Part shown: piece by piece, positions 1,690 to 55,301 of the stretch
Layout: each line of letters starts with the position of its first letter
How positions within the stretch are numbered: position 1 is the stretch's first letter
Assembly (NCBI GenBank): GCA_973895155.1
Contig: OZ316891.1
Location: forward strand, 1-64,000
DNA from: Marsupella aquatica
Taxonomy: Eukaryota > Plantae > Marchantiophyta
DNA length: 64,000 bases
Direction: 5' to 3'
Notes under the pieces: model-generated
The model's database searches: none
The model's input: the letters and a program-made list of their open reading frames with translations, nothing else
What the model was told of the DNA's origin: nothing
Made by a program: the position numbers and the translations under genes

Positions 1690-2058
1690 TTTATCTCTAT
1701 AATTTGCTTTACTCCATTGTACTTTGTTTGGCCTTTTTCAGGAAATTGGTCCTTAGTTTTCTTAAATGTACTTCTTCCTCGTTTTCTATTTTAGTAAGGT
1801 CTCAATGTGGGGAGAGTTTTGTAGATCAATGAACTTAGAAAGTTTGTCTCTGCTTTGGAGCAATGTCGGCTTAATTTACAGCAGGGGAGTGTGAGTTCTT
1901 TGACAGTACTGGTCTAAGTATCCTAAATGTTAGATTCCCCTCAACAGACCCTACATGTGATCACACATTGAGACTTCACCCCTGGCTGCCTCTCACCAAT
2001 ATGTGCAACGTGCACTATATATATAAATTAACACACTTAGAATCAACTACTGTAGAAA

Positions 2059-2077
2059 GTTTAGGGTTTAGGGTTTA
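2059..2077 (+). repeat. Interstitial plant telomere motif (TTTAGGG)~3
   Basis: GTTTAGGGTTTAGGGTTTA read directly. Confidence 0.85.
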
Positions 2078-2737: not shown

Positions 2738-5700
2738 TAATCATTAAACTGTTAAACCCTTTCAAGGTATTATAAACACTTAATGAACACTCAACTATTA
2801 TTTGATTCCTAACCATAACAATCTTTATGGTGCAACCTCTCGCCAAGTAATGAGTATCCACTGATTCCACCAGGCTACAAGTAGTCAATTCAGATTGGCG
2901 GCAGAAGAATAATCATTTTGCCTTGAGTAACTCTGAAGTGTGATTCATTTATGCCTGGTTTGGCCTTGATTTGTCATCCGTCACACCTGGTCATCCCGCC
3001 CCTATCCTGACACCGTCCCAACCTCATCCCAACCCTATCCCAACCCCACCCGGTCCCAACCACACCCCGTAGGGCAACACGTAAACTTGCCCGTTAACTC
3101 AAACCGGGCATTTATCCCACACAAAGATCATCCAACCCCAGGGGCAGGTGAATAATCATTATGCATGGAGTAACTCTGGAATGTGACTCATTTCTGCCAA
3201 GGGAAGATCATCCAAACCCAAGGGAATGCAGCACATTGAACATGGTCAGAACATTGAACTACACAAACAAGGAGGGAGCTCGACCTGTACTTGCTCTAGG
3301 TTGGTCTCCTAGTGGTGTTGGCTATGCTGATGAGGAAGAAGCCTGAAGCACTTGTTGCTGCAAGCTGCCTCTCTCCGGCCACAATTCCAGGATCCTGAAA
3401 ATTAAGCTTCACACCCTGACTTGGGCGTATGCCCAGGTTGACATTTTCCCTCCCTATCATTCTTATTGTTCGGAGAACATGATTGACAGTGAGTTTTGAA
3501 GTAAATTCTGGTGTATTATCCTTTTCCTTTTAATTAGTAGATATTTAAAAAGCAGAAGGGTTTGCAGAATTTATCACAAAGGACATGGTTACATTTCATT
3601 ATATTGAGTTTATGATGGTTTTATTACATTTTGCTTTGAACTTTTTATTGAATACTCCACGTTTCTCAGATTGCACAAGGGGATCTGGTTGTTGGGATGA
3701 CTTTGTGAGTGCAAAATCTACTTCCTTTAGTAGTTGGGAAGCTATCGGCCCTCTTTCACAAGATATTGCCTTACACGTCATTCAAAAGTAAGTTGGCTTC
3801 AAGCACTATTGTTGCCAATGATATGAAGCTCTACATGCACTTGGACAAATGAGTTTCAGTTTCAGGTTTCTTGTCATTGTTTTTGGTCATCCTCAAGACA
3901 CTAAATCCTTTTAGTGTTCTGTGCAGTGTCATTCATGCCAACATTGTACAAATATTGAGGCGAGACCAAGGAAAGAACTGTACACTCCTTGGGACAAATC
4001 AATAGTAGATTTATGAAGGTGAGTACCTCAACATCAAAATTCCCCCTTTCTCCCCACCTACATGTTGAATTATTCATAAATCTAATGATAAAAATTACAA
4101 CTTACGGCATTTCGGTACTCAGATCTGAAATGGTTCGTGTACTATTTGACCGGAATTGTAATATTTACTGAATTGGAATTAGAATAAACAAATTCAGTGG
4201 ATTTGTTTGCTATAGTGTGGGAAAATCTAAAAAAATTGAACACCATAAAATTAAAGTTTACACTTTATTGGATTCTTTGTTATAAAAACATTCTTGAACT
4301 GTTTGTTAGAAAAGTTCTTAAACTAAAGTCCTCAAGGTTTTGAAGGACAGTATTTTTGAATGGCTATGATCACAGATCTCACCTTTTGGACGTGGTTACA
4401 ATTATCCCTATTTTCATTGCTCCCCATGTGAATGAGGGTACTTTTATCTCCTGAGGGTACCCTTGTGCATGAGGGTACTCTTATCAGTGAGGGTACTCTT
4501 ATCAATGTGGTACATTTATCAACGATGGTACTTAATTAGATCAATGAGGGTACCCTTATCAATGAGGGTACTCTTATCTCCTGAGGGTACCCTTGTGCTT
4601 GAGGGTACTCTTATCAACGAGGGTACTCTTATCAGCGAGGGACTCTTATCAGCGAGGGTACTCTTATCAATGGGTACGCTTATCAACAATGGTACTTTGA
4701 TCAGTGAGGGTACCCTTATCAATGAGGGTACTCTTATCTCCTGAGGGTACCCTTGCGTATGAGGGTACTCTTAAGTATCAATGAGGGTACACTTATCAAC
4801 AATGGTACTTTGATAATGAGGGTACCCTTATCAGTGAGGGTACTCTTATCTCCTAAGGGTATCCTTGTGTTGGGCCTTGTCCATGAGGGTACTCTTATTA
4901 ATGAGGGTACTTTTATTAGTCATAGCAAGCAACAAAGCGGGCAGGGACCCCATGAAGGCGCCCTGCGCCGGTAGAAGGACTCCAAACGTACTGAAAAGAC
5001 CCTAAACCTCACCGGACCAGCATTTTGGGTATTGCAGGGACAAATACCAGCCAAAGTACATGCCTGAATTTACCTGCTCTATATTGGTTCCCTAAACCAG
5101 AGGTGATTTTTTTCATCAAATCCATACATTGTATCCTAGTTTTTTTCGCACATGATGTACAAACCTACATAATGTGAAAGTGGGGGAGAAGAAAAACAGC
5201 AAAAACCAAAGCAAGCAAAAAAAAATTCAGCTTTTTCCAGGAAGAAAAAAAAACTTCACCGTCAGGGGGGAAGGAAAAAAAAACTCCAGCTTCAGGCGCT
5301 AGGGAAAAAAACTTGAGGAAGGGCAGGGAAGGAAAAACAATTTGAGCTTCAGGAAAGGGAAACTTTAAGATTTTAGACGATAGGAAAACTTCAGGTAAGA
5401 GTCAAATGTTTTTTTGTAGTATTTGTAAATTAGAGTCAGGAGTTTTGAACTATCTATTCTCTTCGGTGAATTTGTTTTGGCTACCTTGTTCTCTAGAAAG
5501 GCAAGCATTGTGCATCGGTTGAAGTGCAAAGAAGATAGGACGGTATTTTCTTTCCTGGGTATCGATCAATAGACACGTTATTTAAATATGGGGTACCATT
5601 TATTCTAGTAAACAATTCTCTCATTACATTCAATATAAATGGACCCTAAACTCCCCCTGCCCCATTCTGGTCTGGTCTAGTTTTACTCCTCGACACCTCC

Positions 5701-25400: not shown

Positions 25401-25720
25401 CTCTCTCTCTCAGTCTCTCTCTCTCTCTTGGACGAAGCCATTGTCGACAACTTAACTAGAAGGAAGAGATTTTTGTCCACTTATCAGTCATTTGCAAGCC
25501 AATCTCTTCATCACTAACGATGAAGGTAGGGATTTTCTGATTGCTCAATGAATGAATGAGGGGGTCTCAACCTTCCTTTGACCCTAAATGCATGCTCCCT
25601 TCCTCCTCTTCCACAAACTTTGCTTTCATCTCCCTCATCCATCCGTACTTGCACGACCATGAGAAATTTCACTCCTTGGTGGCATTCACTCATTCGAGGC
25701 TTGACACAGGGTATGGTCCT

Positions 25721-28700: not shown

Positions 28701-28936
28701 CTCAAGTCTATTCTTCCCCCACAAACCCATGTTTCAGATTGTTCACTGTCAAAGTTCCGGATGAAATCTATCATGTCAGACTTAGAATGACTCTTAGTGT
28801 CCCAACGAACTCCCAAAACAAAATCTGCAAGCCCATTGTGTTGAAGATATTCTGAATGTCGCGCTTGACACAATGTCGTCACCACAAGTGGTGGGATAAA
28901 ATAGAATGTTGGCATCGCCATAGGCTTGGAAGACAT
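25721..28936 (-). pseudogene. Six-exon gene: plant-transposon-protein-like domain + coiled coil + C-terminal telobox (TRF-like) Myb domain; one in-frame TAG at 26669-26671
   Basis: Exons 28936-27374, 27026-26870, 26682-26402, 26263-26067, 25946-25880, 25774-25721 have consistent phases (one GC-AG intron, AG|GCAAGT at 26066). Spliced C-terminus: KRWSKEETNCLKQAVRRFGPGKWSRILAAEGAHFIDRSEIDLKDKWQNL. Confidence 0.8.
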
Positions 28937-29590: not shown

Positions 29591-30702
29591 GTGATTCAAT
29601 CCGCACAATTATGTTTAACTATTCAATCTGTACAATTATGTTTAACTACAGTACAATATTCACGCTTATTCTATGATCCAAGCCGTCACCAAAGATTTGC
29701 TCTAGAGGGATAATAATGTGGATTCCTATGAATCACCTAACAAGAAGCGGGCACTAACTAAGTACAAGTGTCCCTAATTAAGGCTTCCATGCTTGAATTG
29801 GTCTTAGCCAATAGGAAGCAAGACCAAATTAACAATACTTTTTGTGTCCTCATGAATACATATATTCGAAGCTCTTAATCTACCACCAATGCTCTCTCCC
29901 CTTGCACCAGCCTAGGTACTTACATTCTTGAGGAGACCCATCTAGTGTGTCTAGAATGTTATACACAAGCCAAGGGAGAAGGAATTTTTTGCCCATTCCC
30001 TTTCTTTCAGTACACCTCTGTATGACATAAATTCCCATTGCGACATTTTCCTTTCTAGCATAGAGTGGGAGCCACACAAGGAGCCACGGCTCCACCCTTT
30101 CCCATTCTTTCAGTGTGCCTTTGGTGTAGAGCAGGAGCCAAATATTGGAACTGTGTAATCCTGCACACCTCTAAGCTTGAACTCAGGCAGGCTAATTTCA
30201 TAGTGTGTCGGATTGGGATATGACAAAAAGCTAAAATCTCAGCCCACAAGATGCAGGTAATTAAGATTCCTAGTTAGAGAACCCCTCCCTAACCCTAGTA
30301 CTTCCGGAATGACATACAAACGGGCATACAAAGGCCCAAAGGAAAATGAATTTTTTGCCTTTCCCAATCTTTCAGTTCTTTTAGTGCACCTTTAGCGTAG
30401 AGCAATCCAAAAGGATGAATAGGGCATGTCAAAGTGTTACAGTCCAAAAAAATAAATCAAAGTGTTGTGGGATTTGTATTTTGGTAGCCCATAGTGATTT
30501 TGTCTTGACTGTAATAGTGTTTTATGACCTGAGCAATAATTGAGTTACATCTATGCAGCTTTAACACTCCCTAATGGAATCTTGGAACTATGTAATCATG
30601 CACCTCAGAGCTTGAACTTAGGTGGGCTAACTTCATGGTATGTACCTTTAGTATAAGGCAAACAAATAAAATTCCAGCAGACAGGATCATCCTAATTCAC
30701 CA

Positions 30703-31880
30703 TGTACAAATATTGAGGCGAGACCAAGGAAAGAACTGTACACTCCTTGGGACAAATCAATAGTAGATTTATGAAGGTGAGTACCTTAACATCAAAATCC
30801 CCCCTTTCTTCCCACCTAGTACATGTAAAATATTCATAAATCTAATGATAAAAATTACAACTTACAACTGCATTTCGGTACTCAGATCTGAAATGGTTCG
30901 TGTACTATTTGACCGGAATTATAATTTTTACTGAATTAGAATTAAAATCTTGAAAAACTTTATGTGGATTTGTTTGCTACAGTGTGGGAAGATCTAAAAA
31001 AATTGACACCATAAAATTGAAGTTTACACTTTATTGGATTCTTTATTATGAAATATTCTTGAACTTTTAGTTAGAAAAGTTCTTAAACTAAAGTCCTCAA
31101 GGTTTTGAAGGACACTGTTTTTGAATGGCTATCAAAGATGTCACCTTTTGGATGTGGTTACAATTATCCCTATTTTCATTGCTCCCCGTGTGAATGAGGG
31201 TACTCTTATCTCCTGAGGGTACCCTTGTGCTTGAGGGTACTCTTATCAGTGAGGGTACTCTTATCAGCGAGGGTACTCTTATCAATGGGTACGCTTATCA
31301 ATAATGGTACTTTGATCAATAAGGGTACCCTTATCAATGAGGATACTCTTATCTCCTGAGGGTACCCTTGCGTATGAGGGTACTCTTATCAATGAGGGTA
31401 CTCTTATATCAGCAAGAGTACTCTTATCAATGAGGATACTCTTATATCAGCAAGAGTACTCTTATCAATTAATGGGTACACTTATCAACAATGGTACTTT
31501 GATAATGAGGGTACCCTTATCAGTGAGGGTATTCTTATCTCCTAAGGGTACCCTTGTGTTGGGCCTTGTGCATGAGGGTACTCTTATTAATGAGGGTAAT
31601 TTTATTAGTCATAGCAAGCAACAAAGCAGGCAGGGAACCCCATGAAGGCGCCCCGCACCGGCAAAAGGACTCCGAACATACTGAAAAGACCCTAAACCTC
31701 ACTAGACCAACATTTTGGGTATTGCATGGACAAATACTAGCCGAAGTACATGCCTAAATTTACCTGCTCTGTATTAGTTCCCTAAACCAGGGGTGATTTT
31801 TTTCATCAAATCCATACATTGTATCCTAGTTTTTTTCACACATGATGTAAACCTACATAATGTGAAAGTGGGAGAGAAGA
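30703..31880. repeat. Internal partial third copy of block A (matches 3945-5192), including the 18-bp array
   Basis: Starts TGTACAAATATTGAGGCGAGACC and ends GTGAAAGTGGGAGAGAAGA. Confidence 0.9.
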
Positions 31881-32055
31881 CTTATGATTTGATACAATCT
31901 TCATTTAACTATAGTACAATATTCACTAATCATCAGTATATATGGTAAGCTCCAATTCCTCCATATAGTATGTAGACAAAAATTGAAGCAATTGATGAAA
32001 TAATTAACAATTTCATTACACTTGATATTAATTACAGTGCTTCCTTACTTCTTCC

Positions 32056-35000
32056 TCACCAGTACTCAGGATATTTTGTTTTCACAATAGCAACAGCAAA
32101 CAAAACAAAGTTATTCACTACTTTCCCTGTACCTATCTGCATGAACCAAGTAGCAAGTTCTTCATCACTTTTCTCTCGAATTTCCGGAAATTCCTTGAAC
32201 AATTCTGTTTGTATCCGAGAAACCCTCCAGCCTTGCCACACAAAATGTCGAAGACGCTCGCCTGTTCTATCATTGCACTGATCACCATATGGTCCTTTAT
32301 GAATACACATTCCAGTGACAACTACAGTATGTTGAAAGTGACACTTAAAACAAGTCCATGCATTTTGAGGGAATGTGTTCTTGCAGGTCCGGGCCTGGTG
32401 AGATCCTAGACATCTAAAACACAATGACCGCAATATAGGACAGTTGACAGCATTGTGTACTTCTTGCTCCCTTGATTCAGGACACTGACAAATTAAGCAT
32501 TGACTTCCATCACCCGCAAAAGTTCTGATGATACGAAGATCCCTTTTATCACTCTCAAAAGATCGGCTGTGTGCCATAGCCCTTAGCCTTGCAACCACAG
32601 GCTCTGCTTCATGTACCCCTTGTATAATTGGGGTCATCGGCAAGGTGTTTCCTTGTCGTCTTGGCATGGGAGTGGCTGGGGGTTGCGTAGGAGTTTCATA
32701 TGTTGACTCATCCGAACCCCCTCTTCCTGGAATTCCCATTGAAGATGATGCTACCTCATGTGGTGGAATTGAGGCTGTTCTACAAGGAATGTCTTGTGTG
32801 AACACCTCAAAGTCAACTATGTCCACACCTGGGCTGCACATCACAGATGCTTGGGAACACAAGTCACACAAACTAGAGAATGGAATAAGATGACATACTT
32901 GAGGTTTTCCATCGACCTGGTCATGGAGCCCAAACCGACGACATGATGTCTTGTTCTCTATCCATTTGTGTGAAGCCGCTGTGGTTGAATCAATGCGTTC
33001 GGCCATCTTGCGATAAGCAAGGTTGGTCACCACATAACTCATCGCCGGGAGCCCATCACGTCCACCTCGTCCAGATTCTTGGTGGAAGTGTTCCAGAGAC
33101 CTGAAACTACCACGATGAATGACAAGCTTAACCCATTTATAATTGTATCCACTACTAATCACTCCGGTGGCCACCATGATCTTACAAGCACCTGACGTCC
33201 AAGAACTCAATGAAGCCCTCTTCACCGCTATGTCCAGATGCGCATGCACATACACACATGACATTTCTTTCCCTTGGAGGATTCTTGTAGTTGATTCCAC
33301 CTCCTCGCGGGTTAGACAAAATACTAGGGCCCTCTCTTCTGGCAAAGAATATGCTCTCCAATCACGCAGAAGACTCACTATTTCTTGATCCATCATGTTA
33401 TGGCCAACCTCAACAACGGCATACCTGATGTTGGGTCTCACAGTAGGACAACGAATCCACACCATCTCTGTAGCTAACATCCGCTCAATATCAACTTGAT
33501 TCTTGGGTGCTAGGGATGCAGTTAACCCTATGATTTGGCAATTAATTTCCATGAGGCCAACCAACTTTTTCATTGACGGTCGAAAGTCAGATAACATGAG
33601 GTGCACCTCGTCGTAGACAATGGAATGCAAGGAACCACTGCATTTCAACTGCTTTGCCAAGATAATGAATAGTTTGGATTCTGCAGCAATCTCCACAGCC
33701 ACAAAAATGATCGAAGGAGGTCTTGCCACTTCGACTGCACCATCCTTATACACAACACAACTAATATTTGCTTGTTTGCATTCCTCTACGTGGCCCTCTA
33801 CTAGGATAGTGAGTGGAACGATCACAATCACCGTCCTATTCTGTCCCATGGTGGAAGGTGCCATGAACACCAATGATTTTCCAGACCCAGTGGGTAGTAT
33901 GGCAACAAAGTCCACCACATTATCTATGGATAGAGCAACTGCTGTTGCTTGTTCCGACGATTTCCACTGTTGATGACCAAGCCTTCTTAAGGCTTGACAA
34001 GCTCCAGCAGTCCTATTGAGACAAACTTGTAGCAGGGGATCACTTTCTCCACTTGCCAATAATGTCTGATGGATGTTTGAGTGGAAAACTGTAAACCGCC
34101 TCCTTTTGGGAATTTGCCTCACCTCATATTCAACACCTCCAACGGGTCCCAAAAAGTCAAAAGGTGCAGTTGACATTACCTCGGGCCTCTGTGACCCACC
34201 GAGGCCAACCAACTTGTGCCACAATCGTGACACCAATACACACCCTCTTAAACTATGTCCATCCATGCCTCTAGGATCCTTTGTACTATGAGCATAGTGA
34301 TGGCCGACCGTAGCTGTTTCATGACCACCTGCTACATCCACAAGGTCTTCTTGTAAATGGGCCTTACAAGCTCCTATATTCTCACTCCAATGTGCTGCCA
34401 CATGCCGGTACTTTGCAATCCCAAATGGAATGCCACAGTGCTTTTGGAAAGCATCTAATACACTGGCAGAAAGGTCTGCTCCCGTCAGCCTCTTGTCCAT
34501 GGCCACAAACCAACAATCCAGGTACATTGCTGCAACTTCCGGACCCCACAAAATATTCGCCACGAAAGATTGTACTGGGCGAACTAGACATAACAATTTC
34601 ACAAATAGGTGGCTTTGATTGTCAGGAATGAACCGAGCAGTGAGGTTTATAGGTTTCCCAGCATTTGCACATTTTTGGTAGGATTGATAAACCATCAGCG
34701 TATCAGATAACCAAATGAATGCTCTATCCCCAGTGGCAGTGTTGCGAATCAATAGGCTCGAGTATTCTTCCCCTCTTGCAGGTAATCCAGAACAGAAATG
34801 CAGAAGTAGGTTCAATAGCCTCTGTAGCTTGGAACATGCAACCATCCACCTGTGGAGTGCAGGCATGTTCCAAATAACTCCATTTACATTGTCCACTCGT
34901 AGGATGAAATGTGCCATCATCATAGTATTACTGAACATGTGGTTCAATAGATCCTTTCCATGTTGTTGGAACTCTGGATTTTGGGCGTCTATGAGAAAAG

Positions 35001-37014
35001 AATAATTCACTTCGTCTGTCTGGACAGCATCATGAATGCAGCCCTTGGTACTCACCAAATTGAGTATCCATTCAGATTTGAGACCGAGAAGAACATCATG
35101 GTTGAGTGTTGTTGTCGCTTCTTCAACAATGGCACGGATCATATCCCTGAACGCATTCAATGTGATAATATCACCGTCAATTGAGCATGCTGTTTGTGTA
35201 TCGTCCATGTGTATGAGATTTGGTCGAGCATGGGTGCCTCGATTAATTGTTTTTGCCAGTCGCATGTACTGCCGAACTTGAGTAATCGGCGTGTCCAATG
35301 CCACATCGCTCACGTATTTCTCCAGGATGTTTACTTCATTCCCAGGTAGGCCATGTGGGTTTGGATGCCAAAGAGCTTGTGAGAGTTCCATCAGGATTGT
35401 ACATCTTGCCCAGTAGTGAAGTATTGCCAATATTTTGGTGATTTTCCCAATTTTGCAAAATGCATACCCTGTGGATTGGGAACCCAGCCCGTCACTCTTT
35501 AGAGAGTGGAGGATAAAGAACCGAGTGAGCAAACAATCCGCCGGTGAACGAGCATACAACAGCTCCGGAATTTTTGGAGTCCAGAGAAGAAGTAGTACTC
35601 GATGGATATTTGTGAGATCAATATCACCTTCTTCTGCAGGCCGCGCCTCACTTGGTTGGCCTAATTGTGCCAATAATTGTTGCAGGGCACCTTTTAGATC
35701 TGGCCTATCTGTGTATATAACACAATGTTGAGGCCGAGAATCATAAGTACAAGAACGAATGAGGCAAAGAAGAAGGGAAACCATTCCAGCACAGTATTGT
35801 GGAACAGTGTTTTTCTCTTGTAGTCCACCCAATCCCCTTGTGACATCGGCATTTGGAGTCGGCTTCATCACCATTCTTTGCACCCTATAATCTAAATTTC
35901 CACTAAGAATATTTCTTGTGCATGTCATGTACGCATGGACCACAGTGCCCAAGTACGATAGTGAAGACCCAGGGTCGGCGGGCCTTGGGGGTTCCATCTC
36001 AGATTGCACTTCAACAAATGGCACACCTTCCGGCATGAACTGGGATGCAATCTCATGCCATCTTGATACCCTTAGCCACGGCGACAATTCCCTCACTGGA
36101 GGTGCAAGATCTGTCTTTAATGACTGTAGATGAGCTTGAAAAACTTTTGCGTCTGCACCTCTCGTACTCTGAGCTACTGCATTGTCCGCAAGGTACACAT
36201 TGCCATGGTCCACTCCATAGAATTTGCGGCCGACTCCCTTGAAGAGGGCTTGCACTTGACATGGAGTAGCAATGTCCTTGAAACCAAGGTGGTTGTGTTT
36301 CATACATTGGTGATTTGCCATCGTCCGCTGTGATCTACAAAAGAAGATACATCTTGAGCAAGAGAAGCCCCAATGAATGAGGACGCCCGGAACTGGAGAC
36401 AACAATTCTGCAGTTGGATTGATTGTGTATGGTAGTAGGGACGCATCATTTGTACGTGTGAACAACACACCCTGCAACAAAACCGACAATTGCTCTGGTG
36501 TTGGATTCGTGATTGAATTTTGTGTTGCAACTCTCACCCTGTCCATGTTCCTTCGATGACTTCCAACATGACGGATAATGCTACTTCCTTCCGTGTGCTG
36601 AAGGGCTGTATGGCATTGCAAGCATACTAGAAGAACAAGGTTGTTGTGGTGAACAATGCAAAGCTTTGCATTTCTCAACATGTCTGGTGTTGCTAACAGG
36701 TCATGATCTAGGATAGTGGTGGGGACTTGGTTGACAATTGGATCGTCTACATCCATGAACGGGTCAACTCCTACTGCTTCATTGTGTTTCCTTTTGTAGT
36801 GAAGACGTAAACTATCACTACGGGGATAGGACGAGGAACATGTGGCCACAGGGCAATGGAATCGACCATCCTCTTCTTTCTCAATGATCTGGGTTGTGCC
36901 ATTGTTGAGCTGCAATTGGTAAGTAGAACGGTGAACTGAGCGGGAATGGGAACTGCGAGAGTTTGCTGACTGAAATTCTTCCCCACACTGACTACATCCA
37001 AATACTGTCACCAT
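32056..37014 (-). CDS. 1652-aa zinc finger / DUF3505-like + tyrosine-recombinase-like + RecQ (SF2 DEAH-type) helicase fusion, telomere-linked-helicase-like
   Basis: Uninterrupted ORF. C2H2 fingers (CSQC..HSRSVH, CPVATC..HYKRKH). YR-like motifs PARGEE, KYRH, GGH-x8-Y. Helicase motifs LPTGSGKS, DEVH, TAS, QESGRGGRDG; RecQ Zn module CRR..C..CDLC; C-terminal CCHC-like knuckles. Splice-acceptor-like TTTTTCATGCAG just upstream of the ATG. Confidence 0.9.
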   Translation of the reverse strand: MVTVFGCSQCGEEFQSANSRSSHSRSVHRSTYQLQLNNGTTQIIEKEEDGRFHCPVATCSSSYPRSDSLRLHYKRKHNEAVGVDPFMDVDDPIVNQVPTTILDHDLLATPDMLRNAKLCIVHHNNLVLLVCLQCHTALQHTEGSSIIRHVGSHRRNMDRVRVATQNSITNPTPEQLSVLLQGVLFTRTNDASLLPYTINPTAELLSPVPGVLIHWGFSCSRCIFFCRSQRTMANHQCMKHNHLGFKDIATPCQVQALFKGVGRKFYGVDHGNVYLADNAVAQSTRGADAKVFQAHLQSLKTDLAPPVRELSPWLRVSRWHEIASQFMPEGVPFVEVQSEMEPPRPADPGSSLSYLGTVVHAYMTCTRNILSGNLDYRVQRMVMKPTPNADVTRGLGGLQEKNTVPQYCAGMVSLLLCLIRSCTYDSRPQHCVIYTDRPDLKGALQQLLAQLGQPSEARPAEEGDIDLTNIHRVLLLLWTPKIPELLYARSPADCLLTRFFILHSLKSDGLGSQSTGYAFCKIGKITKILAILHYWARCTILMELSQALWHPNPHGLPGNEVNILEKYVSDVALDTPITQVRQYMRLAKTINRGTHARPNLIHMDDTQTACSIDGDIITLNAFRDMIRAIVEEATTTLNHDVLLGLKSEWILNLVSTKGCIHDAVQTDEVNYSFLIDAQNPEFQQHGKDLLNHMFSNTMMMAHFILRVDNVNGVIWNMPALHRWMVACSKLQRLLNLLLHFCSGLPARGEEYSSLLIRNTATGDRAFIWLSDTLMVYQSYQKCANAGKPINLTARFIPDNQSHLFVKLLCLVRPVQSFVANILWGPEVAAMYLDCWFVAMDKRLTGADLSASVLDAFQKHCGIPFGIAKYRHVAAHWSENIGACKAHLQEDLVDVAGGHETATVGHHYAHSTKDPRGMDGHSLRGCVLVSRLWHKLVGLGGSQRPEVMSTAPFDFLGPVGGVEYEVRQIPKRRRFTVFHSNIHQTLLASGESDPLLQVCLNRTAGACQALRRLGHQQWKSSEQATAVALSIDNVVDFVAILPTGSGKSLVFMAPSTMGQNRTVIVIVPLTILVEGHVEECKQANISCVVYKDGAVEVARPPSIIFVAVEIAAESKLFIILAKQLKCSGSLHSIVYDEVHLMLSDFRPSMKKLVGLMEINCQIIGLTASLAPKNQVDIERMLATEMVWIRCPTVRPNIRYAVVEVGHNMMDQEIVSLLRDWRAYSLPEERALVFCLTREEVESTTRILQGKEMSCVYVHAHLDIAVKRASLSSWTSGACKIMVATGVISSGYNYKWVKLVIHRGSFRSLEHFHQESGRGGRDGLPAMSYVVTNLAYRKMAERIDSTTAASHKWIENKTSCRRFGLHDQVDGKPQVCHLIPFSSLCDLCSQASVMCSPGVDIVDFEVFTQDIPCRTASIPPHEVASSSMGIPGRGGSDESTYETPTQPPATPMPRRQGNTLPMTPIIQGVHEAEPVVARLRAMAHSRSFESDKRDLRIIRTFAGDGSQCLICQCPESREQEVHNAVNCPILRSLCFRCLGSHQARTCKNTFPQNAWTCFKCHFQHTVVVTGMCIHKGPYGDQCNDRTGERLRHFVWQGWRVSRIQTELFKEFPEIREKSDEELATWFMQIGTGKVVNNFVLFAVAIVKTKYPEYW

Positions 37015-39468
37015 CCTGCATGAAAAACAACAAAATTAGCTGATGCCATATTTTGCTCTGAAATTATATAGAGCTCTTCACATCAGATTTTCCCGTGGAG
37101 CTCCACAATGGACTCTGAAGTCAATCTCAATTGGCCAACTATCCTAGTATTTTTCATTTTCCATTACCTATGTCCCAAGCTTGATCTGCACCATGAATGT
37201 GCAATCTAACCCAAAGCTTCACTGACATAGAAGTTGGTTGAGCATGTTCACACATTCAACGTACTTTGTGAGCACAGACACAAATTAAACGAATTCAATC
37301 CGAATCTTCTCCAAAACCTGGTCAGTTGGATCATATTTTCACTATCTTGGGAAGTGAACTTGTACCATGCACTCTCTCGATGCCCTTGGGGCTAATAATT
37401 ACTCCAATGCCTCTAAAGCCACCAAACTAATTAATAAAGCCCAAGAACTTATGCCATGGTAATTAGTGACACTATACGGTGTATATTGTCATTCCATACG
37501 ATAATAAATCACATACTATTATTCATTGTACAGTCTATGTTCTTATATTTTGATGTGCTATTACTAGGACACTGAGAACTTATACATACCACGTACATAC
37601 CCTAAAAAATTAAACTTAGAATGATAGAGCCTTGTGTATACATACTGCATCTAATGCCTAGTTGCAATGAAATAAATAATTCTACTTCAGGATATATTAT
37701 TTATGTGTGTAGGACCCCCTAAATGTTTTCACTGGTAGTAAAGTAATCATTAAACTGTTAAACCCTTTCAAGGTATTATAAACACTTAATGAACACTCAA
37801 CTATTATTTGATTCCTAACCAGAACAATCTTTATGGTACAACCTCTCGCCAAGTTATTGAGTATCCACCAGGCTACAAGTAGTCAATTCAGATCGGCGGC
37901 AGAAGAATAATCATTTTGCCTTGAGTAACTCTGAAGTGTGATTCATTTATGCCTGGTTTGGCCTTGATTTGTCATCCGTCACATCTGGTCATCCCGCCCC
38001 TATCCTGACACCGTCCCAACCTCATCCCAACCCTATCCCAACCCCACCCGGTCCCAACCACACCCCGTAGGGCAACATGTAAACTTGCCCGTTAACTCAA
38101 ACCGGGCATTTATCCCACACAAAGATCATCCAACCCCAGGGGCAAGTGAATAATCATTATGCATGGAGTAACTGTGGAGTGTGACTCATTTCTGCCAAGG
38201 GAAGATCATCCAAACCCAAGGGAACACAGTACATTGAAAATGGTCAGAACATTGAACTACACAAACAAAGAGGGAGCTCGACCTGTACTTGCTCTAGGTT
38301 GGTCTCCTAGTGGTGTTGGCTATGCTGACGAGGAAGAAGCCTGAAGCAAGCTGCCTCTCTCCGGCCACAATTCCAGGATCCTGAAAATTAAGCTTAGTTC
38401 ACACCCTGACTTGGGCGTATGGCCAGGTTGACATTTTCCCTCCCTATCATTCTTATTGTTAGGAGAACAGGATTGACAGTTTTGAAGTAAATTCTGGTGT
38501 ATTATCCTTTCCTTTTAATTAGTAGATATTTAAAAAACAGAAGGGTTTGCAGAATTGATCACAAAGGACATGGTTACATTTCATTATATTGAGTTTATGA
38601 TGGTTTTATTACATAAACCCTAATTTTGCTTTGAACTTTTTATTGAATACTCCACGTTTCTCAGATTGCACAAGGGGATCTGGTTGACATTGGGATGACT
38701 TTGTGAGTGCAAAATCTACTTCCTTTAGTAGTTGGGAAGCTATCCGCCCTCTTTCACAAGATATTGCCTTACAGTTCATTCAAAAGTAAGTTGGCTTCAA
38801 GCACTATTGTTGCCAATGATATGAAGCTCTATATGCACTTGGAGAAATGAGTTTCAGTTTCAGGTTTCTTGTCATTGTTTTTGGTCATCCTCAAGACACT
38901 AAATCCTTTTAGTGTTCTGTGCAGTGTCATTCATGCCAACATTGTACAAATATTGAGGCGAGACCAAGGAAAAAACTGTACACTCCTTGGGACAAATCAA
39001 TAGTAGATTTATGAAGGTGAGTACCTTAACATCAAAATTCCCCCTTTCTTCCCACCTACATGTTGAATTATTCATAAATCTAATGATAAAAATTACAACT
39101 TACGGCATTTCGGTACTCAGATCTAAAATGGTTCGCGTACTATTTGACCGGAATTGTAATTTTTACTGAATTGGAATTAAAAGAAAAAAAATTCAGTGGA
39201 TTTGTTTGCTACATTGTGGGAAGATCTAAAAAAATTGACATCATAAAATTGAAGTTTACACTTTATTGGATTCTTTGTTATGAAAACATTCAAGTTGAAC
39301 TTTTAGTTAGAAAAGTTCTTAAACTAAAGTCCTCAAGGTTTTGAAGGACAGTGTTTTCGAATGGCTATCAAAGATGTCACCTTTTGGACGTGGTTACAAT
39401 TATCCCTATTTTCATTGCTCCCCGTGTGAATGGGGGTACTCTTATCTCCTGAGGGTACCCTTGTGCTT

Positions 39469-39943
39469 TGTTGAGCATAGACGATGATCGCAACGGCAAG
39501 CCCATGAACCATCCAACGCACAATAGTCGACACAAGAGATACGTGGTTCACCTCCTTGAGGCTACGTCCACGGGAACACACAAGAGAGCTTTACTGAACT
39601 CTAAGCCCGTCGGCTATACCGAGTCTCCACAGTGTAAGCTCTCCCTATCTCTCAAGTGGCTCCATAACAATGAGCCTTGGTTCTACCTCTCCAAGCACAC
39701 ATGCCTCTTATGATATAGTGTGCAACTTAGTTGTACCTAACCACATAGTTATACCTAACCACATAGTTGTACCTAATCACGTAGTTGTACCTAACCACAT
39801 AGTTGTACCTAATCACGTAGTTGTACCTAACCACATAGTTGTACCTAATCACGTAGTTGTACCTAACCACGTAGTTGTACCAACCCACGTTGTTGTACCA
39901 ACCACGTCATACCTAACCTAGACGTAAGAGTAAATACCCAACA
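39469..39943 (-). repeat. Copia 3' LTR (contains 18-bp GTTGTACCTAACCAC(A/G)TA array)
   Basis: TGTTGAGCATAG...ATACCCAACA; only one difference seen against the other LTR (39751 A vs 45879 G). Confidence 0.97.
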
Positions 39944-39960
39944 ATCTTCCCCTTGACTCT
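39944..39960 (-). other. Polypurine tract
   Basis: Minus strand AGAGTCAAGGGGAAGAT directly abuts the 3' LTR. Confidence 0.85.
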
Positions 39961-40134
39961 GGTCTAGGGGAGAGTAATACTGCCAATGTATATGATCCCT
40001 CAGCGGGAAGTTCTGGACAGAAACCAAACCGGTTTCCCTCTCTAACTAGAGCAAACCAGAACTAAGCCGTAGCCTAATACATAGGAATGAGGAAGAGCAT
40101 ATATCAGTAATTACAATGAATGTTTAAGAAAACT

Positions 40135-43100
40135 CTACTTGTGATGCAATTGCAAAACCTGCAATACGTCACGGTGTCTAGAGAAACTCTCCAAAGGAAT
40201 CACTTTGGTAAATGCGTCAGCCGGGTTGAGTTTACCATCAATCTTGACTAGCTCAAACAAATTATCAGACACAGCCTGCCTGATAAAATGGTACCTGACG
40301 TCAATGTGCTTCACTCTGCTGTCCATCACCTGGTTCACAGCAAGGTGGAGCGCACTTTGACTATCACAATGGAGCTTCACATTCCCCTGTGGCAATCCCA
40401 TTTCAGTGATAAGTCTATCCAACCAAATCGCTTCCTTTGCTGCTTCCGCAGCTGCAACATACTCCGCTTCTGTAGTAGACTGAGCAATACACTTCTGCAA
40501 AGTAGACCTCCAACTTATGCATCCACCGCCAAGTGTGAACACGTATCCTGTTGTTGATCTCCTTCGGTCCAAATCTTGTCCATAGTCAGAATCTACATAG
40601 CCAATCAATGATCTAGCATTCTTTGCATTCGCATCAAATAAAAGACCATGATCCACGGTACCCTTCAAGTACCTGATAATCCACTTCACTGCTTCCCAGT
40701 GTACCTTCCCTGGATTCGACATGTACCTGCTCACCTTGCCCATAGCCATGGCAAGATCAGGTCTAGTGCAAGTCATCAAATACATGAGACTCCCCACTGC
40801 CTTGTCATATGGAACCTTTGACATCAACCCCTTCTCTGTGTCATCCGTAGGACAGAACACTGATGATAACTTGAAGTGTGGAGCCAACGGGGTACTTACT
40901 GGCTTGCTATTCTCCATGTTGAACCTTGCAATTACCTTCCTCGCATAACTGCTCTGCGTCAACCATAGCTTGCCAGCCTCCAAGTCCCTAGTGATCTCCA
41001 TACCCAAAATCCTCTTAGCTGGCCCTAAGTCCTTCATCTTAAACTCTGCACTAAGCAATGCCTTGAGCTTAACAATCTCAGACCTATCCTTGGCTGCAAT
41101 TAGCATGTCATCCACATAAAGTACTAAAACAATGAACCCAAAGACAACATTCTTCACCGGTTTCAAATACACACAAGGGTCAAATACACTTCTGTGAAAA
41201 CCTTGTGACCGAATCCAATCGTCAAACCGCTTGTTCCACTGTCTTGGTGACTGCTTCAACCCATACAAGGATTTCAGCAATCTGCAAACCAATTCCTCCT
41301 GTCCTCTCTTCACAAAACCTAGCGGTTGTCTCATGAAGATCACCTCTTCCAATGTGCCATAGAGGAAAGCTGTGACAACATCCATCTGATCTAGGAGCAG
41401 ACCAAACATTACAACAAGTACACACAATAGTCGTATTGTAGAGTACTTAGCAACTGGTGAGAAGACCTCATTGTAATCCACACCTTTCTCTTGTGTGAAT
41501 CCCTTTGCTACCAATCTAGCCTTGTAGACCTTCGATCCACCTCCTATGGAATTATCCTTCAGCTTGTAAATCCACTTGTTGTCCACCACTTGCTGACCCT
41601 TAGGCAGCTTAACAAGCTCCCAAGTTTTGTTGTCCTTTAGTGACTGCATCTCCGTTTGCATTGCTGCAGTCCACTTCTGCTTCTCCTTTGAAGCACTTGC
41701 CTCATGAAATGAAGAAGGTTCTCCTTCTTCCAAAATTAACGCATCACCCTCATCATCAGCTGTAAAATCATCCTCTTGCAGTTGAGATGAATCAACCCAC
41801 TGTCCATACCTTGATGGAGCGCGTACAGTGCGACCAGATGTTCTTCTAGCCGATGACTCCGGTTGATCTGCGTGTGCTGGTACAATTTGAAGCTCAACAG
41901 CATCCACTTGCTGCTCACCAGCATCAACAAACTCCTCTGGTTCCTCTGGCACAGGAACCAGCTCCATAATTGGAGCAACTCCTTCTCTCCGGTCATGCAC
42001 CTCATAACCAATCTCCCCCTCAACGAGATCCGGGATAGGAGATTTTCCTTTGTCAGTACGGGAGACCTGAGTATTCTCCCCCTCCTTCAATAATCTGGAT
42101 TCATTGAAGGAAACATCCCTACTGACAACGAGCTTACAGGCAATAGGATCCCATAGCCTATAGGCTTTCACACCACTCTGGTACCCAAGAAAAACACATT
42201 TCCTGGAGGTAGGATCCAACTTGGTCCTATTCTGCTTTGGTGTGAGAGCATATGCATCACTTCCAAAAATTACCAAGCCATGATAGTCTGCTTGCCGCTT
42301 ATAGCGCATCTCAAACGGCGTTTTGAAATTGATAGCACTAGAAGGAGAAAGATTTACCAAATAAGCTGCGGTATTGACAGCTTCTGCCCAAAATTCTTGT
42401 GGTAAACCTGATTGGCTCAACATACTCCGTGACCGCTCCAACAGTGTCCGATTGAGCCTCTCAGCGACACCATTCTGCTGCGGAGTATAAACTGTGGTGA
42501 GATGGCGAGTTATCCCCTGTTCTGAATAGTACTCTTCAAATTCCATTGAAGTGTACTCCCCGCCGTTGTCTGACCTTAGACTCTTCACCCTTGTATCCAA
42601 ACACTTGATCGTGTTTCCAGTCTGATTCTCCACCTGGGCCTTCCACTTCTTAAAAATGGACAAGACATCAGACTTATGCGTCATGAAATAAATCCACACA
42701 AATCTTGAGTAATCATCAATAAATGATACATAGTACAACTTTCCAGAGTGTGAGGGAGTCGGGGATGGACCCCACACGTCACTATGTATGTACTCAAGAA
42801 CCGCTTTGGAACGATGAGTTCCAACACCAAAAGCACGACGATGCTGCTTTCCAAGAATGCAATGCTCATAAAACTCTAATTTACAAGATTGCAAATCAGA
42901 AATGAGTCCATTCTTCCGTAAGATAGCCAAACCCTTCTCACTCATGTGGCCTAGCCGTGAATGCCACAGTTGAGTCATCTCCTCGTGAGACTTGATTACA
43001 TTGGCCTCTCCACATACAGTATTGCCCTGTAACACATACAAATTCTTTTGTCTACTCCCCTTCAAAATCACTGTCTCTCCCGACCTGACTTGAAGTTCAC

Positions 43101-43407
43101 CATCAATAACGCTCCATTGATGACCATTTGAATCCAACACACCGAGTGAAATCAGATTCTTACGCATGCCAGGTACATACCTGACTCCGGACACTGTGCG
43201 CACAGCGCCATCAAACATTTGAATCTTCACAGACCCAATTCCCTCAATTTGACAGGAGTGATCATTTCCCATCAGAACTGAACCGTTTGAAATAGAGTAA
43301 GAACTGAAAAACTCACGAATGTAACAAATATGAAAAGAGCAAGCACAATCAAGAATCCACACATCATCTGCTCTCCTAGATGACGTGCACAGGGCATACC
43401 CCCGGCT
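40135..43407 (-). CDS. pol: Copia pol (protease, GAG-pre-integrase, integrase, RT, RNase H)
   Basis: WILDCACSFH, WHSRLGH, HSDVWGP, LRSDNGGEY, QQNGVAERLNRT, KARLVAKG, LYGLKQSPRQW, LYVDDML, KHIDVRYHF; frame is open from the gag stop. Confidence 0.95.
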   Translation of the reverse strand, partial: SRGYALCTSSRRADDVWILDCACSFHICYIREFFSSYSISNGSVLMGNDHSCQIEGIGSVKIQMFDGAVRTVSGVRYVPGMRKNLISLGVLDSNGHQWSVIDGELQVRSGETVILKGSRQKNLYVLQGNTVCGEANVIKSHEEMTQLWHSRLGHMSEKGLAILRKNGLISDLQSCKLEFYEHCILGKQHRRAFGVGTHRSKAVLEYIHSDVWGPSPTPSHSGKLYYVSFIDDYSRFVWIYFMTHKSDVLSIFKKWKAQVENQTGNTIKCLDTRVKSLRSDNGGEYTSMEFEEYYSEQGITRHLTTVYTPQQNGVAERLNRTLLERSRSMLSQSGLPQEFWAEAVNTAAYLVNLSPSSAINFKTPFEMRYKRQADYHGLVIFGSDAYALTPKQNRTKLDPTSRKCVFLGYQSGVKAYRLWDPIACKLVVSRDVSFNESRLLKEGENTQVSRTDKGKSPIPDLVEGEIGYEVHDRREGVAPIMELVPVPEEPEEFVDAGEQQVDAVELQIVPAHADQPESSARRTSGRTVRAPSRYGQWVDSSQLQEDDFTADDEGDALILEEGEPSSFHEASASKEKQKWTAAMQTEMQSLKDNKTWELVKLPKGQQVVDNKWIYKLKDNSIGGGSKVYKARLVAKGFTQEKGVDYNEVFSPVAKYSTIRLLCVLVVMFGLLLDQMDVVTAFLYGTLEEVIFMRQPLGFVKRGQEELVCRLLKSLYGLKQSPRQWNKRFDDWIRSQGFHRSVFDPCVYLKPVKNVVFGFIVLVLYVDDMLIAAKDRSEIVKLKALLSAEFKMKDLGPAKRILGMEITRDLEAGKLWLTQSSYARKVIARFNMENSKPVSTPLAPHFKLSSVFCPTDDTEKGLMSKVPYDKAVGSLMYLMTCTRPDLAMAMGKVSRYMSNPGKVHWEAVKWIIRYLKGTVDHGLLFDANAKNARSLIGYVDSDYGQDLDRRRSTTGYVFTLGGGCISWRSTLQKCIAQSTTEAEYVAAAEAAKEAIWLDRLITEMGLPQGNVKLHCDSQSALHLAVNQVMDSRVKHIDVRYHFIRQAVSDNLFELVKIDGKLNPADAFTKVIPLESFSRHRDVLQVLQLHHK

Positions 43408-44442
43408 TCATAAAACATACTCATCATTGAGTAAATCAGCTTCTCCATCAGCCCTAGCCACATTTGCCGATGAAGTTTCCGCTGCCTTTCCCTTACAGTC
43501 TCGCTTGAAGTGTCCAACTTGGTTGCACTTCCAACATGTCACCTGCCTCCTCTGAGGGGATTTACCCTTGGACTTAGATCTGGATTTAGATCTAAACTGG
43601 GTTCTACGGTCCCCAGTTGGTCGCTGCATACTCCTCCCACGGTTAACATTGAGGGCAGCACCAGATGATGAAGGCTGTGACGTGATGTGCATCTTCTGCT
43701 GAAGATCATCACTAAGCAGAGAACTTACCACGTCATTGTATGAAATGGTATCCCTATCACGATGCAACAACACTCGTGATAGGGACTGGTAAGATGGAGG
43801 CAATGAACTAAGAAGCTGCAGAGCCTTCGTCTCATCATTCAAAGTCTCCCCAAGGTTTTCCAAGTCAACGACCATGTCGTTGAAAGCATCCACATGGTCT
43901 TGCAACTTCGTACCAGATTCCTTCATCCTGAAACTCATCAGTTTGTAGGAAGTGTAGAGCCGGTTCGACAACTCCTTGCGGTGATACTTGCTCTGCAATT
44001 CCGCAAATAAGGACATGCAATCCTTATGTGCACCCAACTGCTTGATGATGGGAGGCATGAGATAGAGTGTAACACACCACACTCCCTGCTCCTGCATGCG
44101 GTCCCATTGTTTCTCATCAACATCGTCTTCACGAGGGCTCAGCAGTTGGCCCATCCCTGACGCATAAAGCACTCCCTTCACCTGCTTCTCCCATAGCAAG
44201 TAGTCAGAGCGCCCATCATACTTTGTCACTTCATACTTGGGTCCCCCAAGCTTGAAAGTCCCCATCTTCTTCTTTACCGTGAGCTCCGGTAGTAGTACTG
44301 CTTCCTCCACCACACGCCGCACCGGTGATGGTATTGGTGTCACGTGCTCTTCCTCCTGCTCCTCTCTCTGCCCCTGAAACCTCCGCGGTGACCCTCGTGC
44401 TTCAAGTTCCACGTCTTCGAAAAACTCCTCCGAATCACTCAT
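43408..44442 (-). CDS. gag: Copia gag (UBN2-type, CCHC knuckle)
   Basis: KYDGRSDYLLWEKQV, LLSSLPPSY, CWKCNQVGHFKRDC. Confidence 0.93.
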   Translation of the reverse strand: MSDSEEFFEDVELEARGSPRRFQGQREEQEEEHVTPIPSPVRRVVEEAVLLPELTVKKKMGTFKLGGPKYEVTKYDGRSDYLLWEKQVKGVLYASGMGQLLSPREDDVDEKQWDRMQEQGVWCVTLYLMPPIIKQLGAHKDCMSLFAELQSKYHRKELSNRLYTSYKLMSFRMKESGTKLQDHVDAFNDMVVDLENLGETLNDETKALQLLSSLPPSYQSLSRVLLHRDRDTISYNDVVSSLLSDDLQQKMHITSQPSSSGAALNVNRGRSMQRPTGDRRTQFRSKSRSKSKGKSPQRRQVTCWKCNQVGHFKRDCKGKAAETSSANVARADGEADLLNDEYVL

Positions 44443-45582
44443 ATGAGAAAGTCACAAAAAATGTTGTTTTTCACAACTTCTCAAAAAACTCGAAACTCAA
44501 CACCGCCGCGTAGCCCACAAAGCTAGGAGTCCAATACTGAAAACCGAAATCAAAATCGAAATTTGACGGAAAAGTTATTCAAATTTCGGTCGAGGTGGGT
44601 AAAACCTTGGGAAACTCCCCCGTTTTGACCACCTCAGGGAATAACCGAAATACCAAGTACAACCCGTTGTCGGAATTGCGATGTGATTGGTGCGCTGCAT
44701 TGCCAACTTCAATGGCTACGACCTCGCCGAAAAATAACCAAAAAAGTTACCGTTCGGCGGATGAAATCTTTGTCGGACGGTCAAAAAATAGCTCTCTGGT
44801 TTTTTGGAATATTCTATGACCCTTGTACAGGCCCTGTGGGAATTTTGGAAGAACAATCGAGGGGCTGACATGTGTCCTCGAACCCCCAAAACCCCCTACC
44901 ACCCTTCGTCGTCGAAATCTGGTCGCGCGCGCAGAAAATACACACGGCAGAATGTACCCCTCGACACCAAACGCAAGATATCTCACTCGGGTTTTGACTA
45001 AATCAAGATCCGATTTCAGATTTGGAAACTAGACTCCGAGGCGATGAAGATCGATATAAGAAGCACCCAAAACAAGGAAAGAACGAGGGAGAAAAAAATT
45101 GGTAAAGATGACAGATTTCTCTCAATTGCCATAGCCAATTTCGAATCAGTTTTTCAAAGAGAAAAAAATGGTACCTTGTCAACAACGAATGTTGATCAAT
45201 TGCACTTGGTGCCGTCACCAAGTCCAACAAGGTAATTGATTTTGCTTAGCCTTCCTCTTTGCATCAAAGAGCCAATCCCGGACTCAAAAACAATCGTCTT
45301 GCCTCAATCTCTCCGTTGAGTCAAAACACTTGACGCTTCTCCCTCCGAGTCGATTGCCAACTTTCTTCACAAAATCCAGAACGACGAAAACTTAGATCTC
45401 TCTGCACCACGAGCTCCGTTCAACGATTTCTTCACACCGTTAGAAAGCTCTTGCCCTGATCTATCCGTTGAGCCCATAAACTCCAAGTTCCATGCGATGG
45501 AACTCTGGAAAATCCACCAACACTCAACGCTGGAAAAACCGTCATGAAATCCCGTCACGAACACACGTCACCTCCCAAGCAT

Positions 45583-45594
45583 GCTCTGATACCA
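45583..45594 (-). other. Primer binding site, initiator tRNA-Met
   Basis: Minus strand TGGTATCAGAGC, 2 nt inside the 5' LTR boundary. Confidence 0.95.
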
Positions 45595-45596
45595 AT

Positions 45597-46071
45597 TGTT
45601 GAGCATAGACGATGATCGCAACGGCAAGCCCATGAACCATCCAACGCACAATAGTCGACACAAGAGATACGTGGTTCACCTCCTTGAGGCTACGTCCACG
45701 GGAACACACAAGAGAGCTTTACTGAACTCTAAGCCCGTCGGCTATACCGAGTCTCCACAGTGTAAGCTCTCCCTATCTCTCAAGTGGCTCCATAACAATG
45801 AGCCTTGGTTCTACCTCTCCAAGCACACATGCCTCTTATGATATAGTGTGCAACTTAGTTGTACCTAACCACATAGTTGTACCTAACCACATAGTTGTAC
45901 CTAATCACGTAGTTGTACCTAACCACATAGTTGTACCTAATCACGTAGTTGTACCTAACCACATAGTTGTACCTAATCACGTAGTTGTACCTAACCACGT
46001 AGTTGTACCAACCCACGTTGTTGTACCAACCACGTCATACCTAACCTAGACGTAAGAGTAAATACCCAACA
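45597..46071 (-). repeat. Copia 5' LTR
   Basis: 475-bp direct repeat of 39469-39943. Confidence 0.97.
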
Positions 46072-52000: not shown

Positions 52001-52489
52001 CGCACACATGCATACAATCTCGATTTACACGAAGGAAAATGATGGGAAAGGATTTTACTACAAAGGGAACATATGCGTACACTTAGTTGACACGACAGCC
52101 CTGGAATGCACAGGTTCAAGGCCGAGGGTGCACACTACAACGGAGCCCGGCTCCGCACTCGCCCGGCGAGCTTAGTCCTACCCCCTCCCCTTGGTACTCT
52201 GTCATTCCCAGAGGTCGGGACTCCCCGCATGTCCCGCGGATGTCCGACTCTGAAACTAAAAACCCCCCCTGCCTCTACCGAGGGGTGCTCTAAATACTAA
52301 GAGCCGAGGAACAGGGTGTCCTCCCGCCGAAGATTCGCTGACTAAGGTCCTAACTAAGCTGACAATCAGGCCAGAAAACGGCTGTGTCTTATTAGAAGAT
52401 CCTAATCTACGCAGGCTGGACAGCAGGGCAGCGCTGCTGTACCTAAGGCAGGTGCCTGTCCCAAGAGCCTGACTAAGCCAATCCTAATC

Positions 52490-55193: not shown

Positions 55194-55293
55194 TCAGAGG
55201 AGATAGTAGTGGCGACCTAGAGAGAACGAGAGAGCTGGGGTCGAAGCTGGCGCGTGGATTGATGGACTGGTGCACTACAAAGGGTTGGCTCCC

Positions 55294-55301
55294 CTTTTAT
55301 A
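55294..55301 (-). promoter_or_regulatory. Candidate TATA box of the 4-kb insertion
   Basis: TATAAAAG on the minus strand ~100 nt upstream of ATG 55193, followed by a CT-rich leader; ~360 nt from the element end. Confidence 0.55.

Follow-up and report, generated by a model that had tools for sequence, protein, structure and literature searches.

What does a RecQ helicase gene that appears to carry a tyrosine recombinase (YR) do in the genome of a liverwort? The question is raised by a gene on the minus strand, at 32056-37014, of a 64,000-nucleotide stretch of Marsupella aquatica DNA (positions 1 to 64,000 of contig OZ316891.1, assembly GCA_973895155.1), which is called the window throughout. 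The gene resembles the telomere-linked helicases (TLHs) of fungi, whose function has been open for two decades and is still called undetermined in a 2024 Fusarium preprint (10.1101/2024.02.27.582403); what is said here of cited papers refers to the parts of their text that were available. We favour, with moderate confidence, the reading that this gene is an intact plant member of the TLH family, a predicted zinc finger-YR-RecQ fusion that is the likely transposase of a selfish element long resident in bryophyte-type genomes. Because the middle of the protein is predicted to be a complete YR, TLH-type genes likely drive a self-spreading element and do not serve telomere upkeep only. The element at this locus is likely an undescribed recombinase-helicase DNA element.

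A single stop-free frame of 4959 nucleotides, encoding 1652 amino acids (aa), fills the interval, as a sequence-only reading of the window had reported; the longest such frame in shuffled versions of the window is 250 aa (n = 50 shuffles). The protein and its parts are arranged as follows.

32056..37014, minus strand: intact open reading frame (ORF) with C2H2 fingers, OrsD/DUF3505, predicted YR, RecQ and a C-terminal Cys/His-rich region
36784..36996, minus strand: two N-terminal C2H2 motifs (aa 7-28 and 54-77), which fit TLH patterns in the available text of 10.1101/2024.02.27.582403
36292..36651, minus strand: OrsD/DUF3505 (aa 122-241; Pfam PF12013, E 6.5e-8)
35224..35967, minus strand: predicted helical domain (aa ~350-597), weakly like integrase core-binding domains; model confidence (predicted local distance difference test, pLDDT) 76
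34195..35217, minus strand: predicted tyrosine-recombinase catalytic domain (aa ~600-940) with R747, K781, R870, H898 and Y907, and Ala at the position of the first His
32842..33981, minus strand: RecQ-type helicase core and Zn-binding part (aa 1012-1391), motifs I, II, III and VI intact
32245..32499, minus strand: Cys/His-rich, zinc-knuckle-like C-terminal region, common to the Calypogeia relative P0002

Pfam assigns OrsD/DUF3505, DEAD and Helicase_C to the 1652-aa protein, with no match to RQC or HRDC domains, and its top NCBIfam family is RecQ. The helicase landmarks GSGKS (1043-1047), DEVH (1135) and QESGRGGR (1312) lie where the sequence-only reading had placed them, and SPWL is found at 311. 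Taken together, the Pfam and motif matches support the TLH-like layout (C2H2, DUF3505-like, SPWL, RecQ) that had been proposed, and the C2H2 and RecQ motifs expected of the TLH family are both present. The coding part lacks an intron. A 3' splice-acceptor-like sequence ends one base 5' of the ATG, and because it abuts the start codon a spliced leader upstream is possible. The claim that this is the only long non-Copia gene in the window without a lesion is wrong, because three other non-Copia ORFs, of 1128 aa (10327-13713), 529 aa (27347-28936) and 448 aa (52490-53836), are open too. The minus strand carries 14 of the 15 long ATG-started ORFs of the window, and an exact-sequence lookup of ten window proteins in the protein collection found none of them.

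By sequence alone, Pfam, NCBIfam and PDB searches of the window protein assigned no recombinase family. The initial argument for one was based on residue spacing, with nine positions from H898 to Y907. All residues are as claimed (R747, K781, R870-H871, H898, Y907, Ala 867), yet a loose R..K..R..H/W-8-Y pattern is present in 464 of 1000 shuffles of the protein, which is chance level, and motif spacing was rejected as evidence. The catalytic assignment nevertheless stands, because the residues are conserved and the predicted fold agrees; both properties had been set beforehand as tests.

Conservation was assessed in alignment A5, which has 25 rows besides the query, several of them partial or near-duplicate (our alignments overall have 26-27 rows). 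Among covering rows, R747 is kept in 23 of 24, K781 in 23 of 23 (one spuriously aligned, and P0002 being without this segment), R870 in 18 of 21, H898 in 20 of 21 and Y907 in 18 of 20, counts that are inflated by relatives having been picked in part with a motif-bearing profile. Five of the seven exceptions fall in broken metagenome copies, and the others in P0010 and the poorly aligned P0015. The five catalytic positions, including the nucleophile, are retained across liverwort, basidiomycete (smut fungi included) and metagenome relatives, and R747, R870, H898 and Y907 were invariant already in the first three-way alignment.

An AlphaFold2 model of aa 600-960 built on A5 has a mean pLDDT of 83 and a predicted template modelling score of 0.85, with local pLDDT falling to 43-65 around H898-Y907. 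In this model R747 opens a short helix, K781 comes after a beta hairpin, R870 is part of a helix, H898 belongs to the loop behind the helix that follows, and Y907 closes a short helix, an arrangement as in YRs. A VIA search of 48,161 chains returned XerA as the top match (Z 12.2, root-mean-square deviation 3.1, 171 residues aligned), and all of ranks 1-29 are YR, topoisomerase IB, Flp, Ndc10, protelomerase or YR-derived folds, counting SroF and MrpR, which we take to be YR-fold proteins; the first unrelated row appears at Z 4.7. The predicted fold is therefore that of a YR. For a second model (aa 290-615), VIA ranks 1-7 are N-terminal core-binding domains of YRs (Z 4.3-5.2, with unrelated rows starting at 4.2), and Foldseek gave nothing clear, with no E <= 0.001 in PDB or BFVD. 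The models are suggestive of a core-binding domain preceding the catalytic domain, in the right order for a YR, and the middle of the protein is predicted to be a complete tyrosine recombinase with both parts. The best BFVD structural match of the catalytic domain is B5LWN9, an uncharacterised Feldmannia species virus protein (E 0.009, TM 0.46).

On both sides the gene is flanked, in direct orientation, by a repeat of about 1.2 kb, named R, which contains a palindromic 18-bp array. The relevant features are these.

30703..31880: direct repeat R, copy C (1.18 kb), ending 175 bp beyond the stop codon
31193-31607: 18-bp array within R copy C, palindrome AGGGTACCCT
37015..38942: upstream region of the gene, with the acceptor-like site before the ATG and segment X (37744-38942)
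38943-39468 and 46077-46845: direct repeat R, copy B, divided by Copia and 95.0% identical to copy C
39469..46071, minus strand: young Copia long terminal repeat (LTR) retrotransposon, inserted in the 18-bp array of R copy B and no part of the element
2738-3944: second copy of segment X, 97.5% identical
3945..5192: R copy A, within an X-R-Y junction duplicate (2738-6876) from which the gene is absent

Of the three R copies, B and C, on either side of the gene, resemble each other most (95.0%, against 93.5% and 92.4%). The window reads as two units in succession, the first of ~46 kb (17.65-64 kb) and the second reduced by deletion (2.7-17.65 kb), and segments of the two are 93.8-98.5% alike. 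A degenerate repeat with strong G/T skew (8973-9770) lies at the truncation junction of the second unit. Upstream of the gene, contigs of organisms B and C skip 922 bp that are present in the window (37645-38566), joining 37644 to 38567; most of this interval is duplicated at 2738-3570. The Copia element has LTRs that are 99.8% identical, a 5-bp target duplication (TGCTT) and an in-frame stop between gag and pol; it is very high-copy, with a depth ~1500 times that of the lowest contigs in sequencing run X1. At a fungal-type locus (L017), 33-bp and 14-bp arrays lie on either side of the gene (1944-3493 and 8767-9018); a TAGCATACATGTATGCTA-like palindrome recurs upstream and between the gene parts, and palindrome-bearing arrays occur on both sides.

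These parts could operate together as follows. The palindromic 18-bp arrays of the two R repeats would be the sites to which the zinc fingers and the core-binding domain attach. Y907, assisted by R747, K781, R870 and H898, would then cut one strand to form a 3'-phosphotyrosine, and the cassette between the R repeats would be excised or integrated by paired strand exchanges, probably in circular form. The RecQ motor to which the recombinase is fused, of 3'-5' polarity, might unwind the intermediates, drive their branch migration or assist copy-out replication. We infer binding, cleavage, circles and movement; the parts list alone is observed or predicted.

The gene was found in six sequencing runs from three organisms and four studies, and the upstream flank is linked to it in runs of two of the three organisms. 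No RNA run appeared among those listed with the gene, which is no evidence on its expression either way. Read depth was compared in four runs over positions 29-49 kb. In X1, one gapless contig of 5814 nucleotides covers 31960-37773 with 20 differences at a depth of 107, and the lowest contigs listed have depths of 17.2-17.5 (one at 35), one low contig being a paralog that is 83-85% identical. Because the gene stands at 107 and the lowest listed contigs at 17-17.5, X1 suggests about six near-identical copies of gene plus flank, a rough ratio (~6x the lowest contigs) since contig depth is not a true copy number. Several near-identical copies are a trait of the TLH family. The differences listed include five gene variants, three synonymous and two conservative. 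In X2 the flank has a depth of 421 against 64-85, with gene pieces at 578-1703, and in X3 gene pieces reach 1936-3441 against 257 for the flank. Contig depth supports a multi-copy state and speaks against a single-copy gene. Past R copy C, the flank at 30271-30732 has a depth of 103 in X1 against 107 for the gene, so the amplified block reaches past R, and R-R was rejected as the limits of the most recent amplification. What last moved or was duplicated is therefore larger than the R-R cassette (at least 29-38 kb) and may be the 46-kb repeat unit seen in the window.

Relatives of the protein indicate how such genes fare over time. Protein searches returned two Calypogeia fissa proteins, at 31% and 48% identity, together with relatives from Lentinula, Leucocoprinus, Suillus, Mycena and Ustilago and unnamed records. 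One cluster (P0017) holds at least 12 records of a single 1622-aa YR-RecQ protein from one Ustilago species, with its motifs intact. Of 190 pattern matches in a metagenome scan, 19 loci were confirmed. Fourteen are close, at 33-43% in the YR region, and include three loci that each occur twice; the other five are distant and represent two distinct loci. Fungal clusters from Ascomycota and Basidiomycota came first in the ESM Atlas (0.97-0.99); one cluster scoring 0.86, in which 17% of the members are phage integrases, is a lead only. No relative was confirmed in scans, insensitive ones, of viral contigs (0 of 91 and 0 of 49 pattern matches) and prokaryote genomes (0 of 146).

Within the close metagenome family, 12 of the 13 loci checked contain in-frame stops. 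The ratio of nonsynonymous to synonymous substitution rates (dN/dS) in the YR domain, estimated by a simple counting method that ignores transition bias, is 0.19-0.31 for 22 pairs with dS >0.35 and 0.40-0.75 for six close pairs. Judged from these sequences, the relatives show the usual transposon pattern of selection during spread and decay after insertion.

Several points weigh against a transposase that moves its own element. In addition to the inflated conservation counts, the His of HxxR is missing in 21 of 21 rows of A5; candidates for a residue that takes its place are Y779, K868 and H871. Foldseek matches of the catalytic model are mostly YRs in the top rows (Tre, Cre, lambda Int, Xer), with no E <= 0.001 in PDB or BFVD, and the core-binding match in VIA is less than one Z unit above unrelated rows. 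When profiles are compared, XerC/XerD/Int/Cre give a weak match (probability 2-3%, E 0.012-0.017); the alignment puts R747, H898 and Y907 on XerD R148, H270 and Y279 and misplaces the Lys and the second Arg. The dN/dS values come from relatives and not from copies of this genome, all depth ratios are rough, and the latest amplification could be the product of ordinary segmental or subtelomeric duplication. Neither defined ends, nor an empty site, nor a target duplication, nor a circle junction was found for the element. The proposal of the sequence-only reading that the gene mobilises the surrounding DNA is plausible in that the flank is amplified with the gene and direct repeats stand on both sides.

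The alternative that survives best, although we regard it as rather unlikely, is that the gene maintains chromosome ends, with an active YR serving as a swivel, resolvase or hairpin-telomere enzyme alongside the helicase, and that it spreads passively with subtelomeric DNA. Its architecture is of the TLH type, and the window contains patchwork duplications, short TTTAGGG arrays and neighbouring telobox-like Myb exons. Topoisomerase IB and protelomerases are among the structural matches (Z 9.3-4.2), but Xer/integrase rows outrank protelomerases (Z 12.2 against 5.0). Tandem arrays on both sides recall the Magnaporthe TLH genes (PMC1635262), and S. pombe tlh expression helps recovery from telomere crisis (10.1101/2024.02.27.582403). 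No terminal telomere array occurs within 32 kb downstream or 27 kb upstream of the gene, the telomere-type (TTTAGGG) sequence in the window being limited to short runs of 2-4 repeats at 1671, 2060 and 53849; Botrytis TLHs, for their part, lie up to 63 kb from chromosome ends (10.1101/2022.03.07.483234). Against a role confined to chromosome ends, close relatives are numerous, diverged and dead, and 13 of 14 of their contigs are without tandem telomere repeats.

It is less probable still that the gene is domesticated or a passenger, its YR fold being idle or used for DNA binding only, as in Ndc10- or ALOG-like proteins, and its copies having been amplified as cargo or by segmental duplication. 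The absence of the first catalytic His, the co-amplified flank, the captured-looking host fragments in the window (SNF2-RING, vacuolar sorting receptor, Myb) and the presence of Ndc10 among the structural matches (Z 6.1) would all fit such a history. However, the five other catalytic positions are retained from liverwort to smut fungi, the relatives decay as transposon copies do, and a Pfam scan of 14 long ORFs and 67 shorter frames of the window revealed no other DNA transposase.

In a YR tree of 26 rows the window protein pairs with Calypogeia P0004 (support 99/97), and all plant-type rows form one clade (100/99) that is nested in none of the sampled fungal groups, without its ties to fungi being resolved. 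A helicase tree of 14 rows (family members only; P0004, P0006 and P0012 were dropped as having no clean Walker A) recovers the same plant-type clade with a support of 99, and because the two trees agree in this clade, the YR-RecQ fusion is old. Recent acquisition from a fungus, or fungal contamination of the assembly, is very improbable and was rejected: the named distant relatives are mostly fungal and the coding region is intron-free, but identity is 48-51% to a liverwort protein against ~20-27% to fungal proteins, the plant copies form one old clade, composition is host-like (GC content at third codon positions 0.41 and CpG observed/expected 0.49, against 0.47 and 0.46 in the resident Copia), and runs of three organisms carry the gene. 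The sharing with fungi by horizontal transfer that had been suggested is accordingly not supported as a recent event, and an ancient transfer into early land plants is possible. TTTAGGG arrays, a vacuolar-sorting-receptor fragment and best matches in liverworts support the plant origin of the DNA.

Several neighbours of the gene deserve description. A SNF2-RING (RAD5/RAD16-like) helicase gene on the minus strand (50600-57080) has introns and lesions and is interrupted by a GC-rich insert of ~4 kb (~51660-55700; GC 57%, little CpG depletion), whose ORFs are related to an ORF at 27 kb and which includes (CCCTAAA)4 at 53849. No terminal repeats of this insert were found; it is probably a young unclassified element. 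At 25720-28936 (minus strand), a 529-aa ORF is accompanied by downstream exons ending in a Myb domain (…W..EE…L…FG.GKW..IL…DLKDKW.N; Pfam Myb, E 0.09), presumably of the telobox type, and this gene adjoining a TLH-like gene is a possible telomere-repeat binder. An isolated vacuolar sorting receptor fragment at 23947-24141 (minus strand; PF25011, E 2e-13) is probably a captured host exon. Two minus-strand copies of a coiled-coil gene made of 189-bp (63-aa) repeats (10327-13713, open over 1128 aa, and 57108-59260, broken) are each preceded by 116-bp and 153-bp satellites.

If the middle of these proteins is a recombinase, its conserved active site reduces the question of TLH function to a test of one residue, the tyrosine, and suggests that TLH genes are selfish elements. 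The plant copy, which is intact, apparently recently amplified and bordered on each side by candidate binding sites, is well suited to such a test because most relatives are dead. The multi-record Ustilago protein offers a good system for mapping element ends. Should the element prove mobile, it would represent a YR DNA transposon that carries cargo in land plants, and genome engineering would gain a new recombinase.

Among known systems, two share the RecQ-type helicase with the window gene and are set apart from it by general description. AcademH elements encode a DDE transposase and a separate helicase and have terminal inverted repeats. Plant RECQ genes are intron-rich and encode RQC/HRDC domains, whereas the window gene has its RecQ-type SF2 core in a single frame with no such match. 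The helicase scores 294-304 bits against Calypogeia, 102-133 bits against seven TLH-like relatives and 93 bits against human RECQ1 (E 1.5e-25).

Classical YRs (XerA/XerC/XerD, Cre, lambda Int, IntI) share the predicted fold, the R..K..R..H..Y order, the H-to-Y spacing of nine and a preceding core-binding domain. They differ from the window family, which lacks the HxxR His, and from the window protein, which is fused to zinc fingers and RecQ and is 8-19% identical to them; the model, in which ~170 residues align over a 340-residue span, would also imply a large insertion before the first Arg. The first His is not strictly needed by Cre, and variation at this position is tolerated in Starship captains (PMC10104507, as far as its available text goes).

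Starships, with their DUF3435 captain, and Cryptons, including the DUF3504 Glomhoppers, are eukaryotic DNA elements moved by a YR, and the window gene shares cargo-like neighbours with them. The short-repeat ends of Starships were not found in our case, and Pfam detected no DUF3435, DUF3504 or Phage_integrase in the window protein or any of the 26 rows, so that neither a DUF3435 captain nor a Crypton-type YR profile is present. RecQ is fused in frame here, and the YRs of Starships and Cryptons are not described as RecQ fusions in the available text of PMC10104507 and PMC13465315. The block of up to 46 kb contains cargo candidates in the SNF2-RING helicase, the telobox Myb gene and host fragments. 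A bolder extension, which we offer tentatively and would not expect to hold in full, is that TLHs are transposases of an unrecognised eukaryotic recombinase-helicase superfamily, and that the live plant member has recently multiplied this block as a land-plant counterpart of Starships.

The TLHs of fungi and Monosiga (M. oryzae TLH1, S. pombe tlh1/2, U. maydis, F. oxysporum, BcTLH) are of ~1600 aa, like the window protein, and share with it two N-terminal C2H2 motifs, DUF3505/OrsD and the RecQ core, probably also a conserved block of ~250 aa directly upstream of the helicase (the 'TLH domain', a name that reportedly goes back to Rehmeyer 2009), as well as a multi-copy state and tandem arrays on either side of the gene. 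The window gene differs in that its host is a land plant and that no telomere array lies within 27-32 kb of it. In their available text, 10.1101/2024.02.27.582403 defines TLHs by C2H2, TLH domain and RecQ; PMC1635262 (2006) states that TLHs were not found outside fungi and does not use the word 'recombinase'; and 10.1101/2022.03.07.483234 describes presence/absence variation among Botrytis strains, with 14 copies against none. No published link between TLHs and recombinases, and no TLH in land plants, was found in a search judged from listings, with most subscription papers outside it (the literature base also takes in PMC5576322, 10.1101/2023.02.05.527183, 10.1101/2025.11.13.688278 and PMC13465315). 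The position of the TLH domain matches here, and the fungal proteins, including that of Ustilago, are homologous in this region, the named TLHs being compared by published description. This domain is without an assigned function in the TLH literature available, whereas the matching region of the liverwort protein is predicted to be a YR catalytic domain that follows a core-binding domain.

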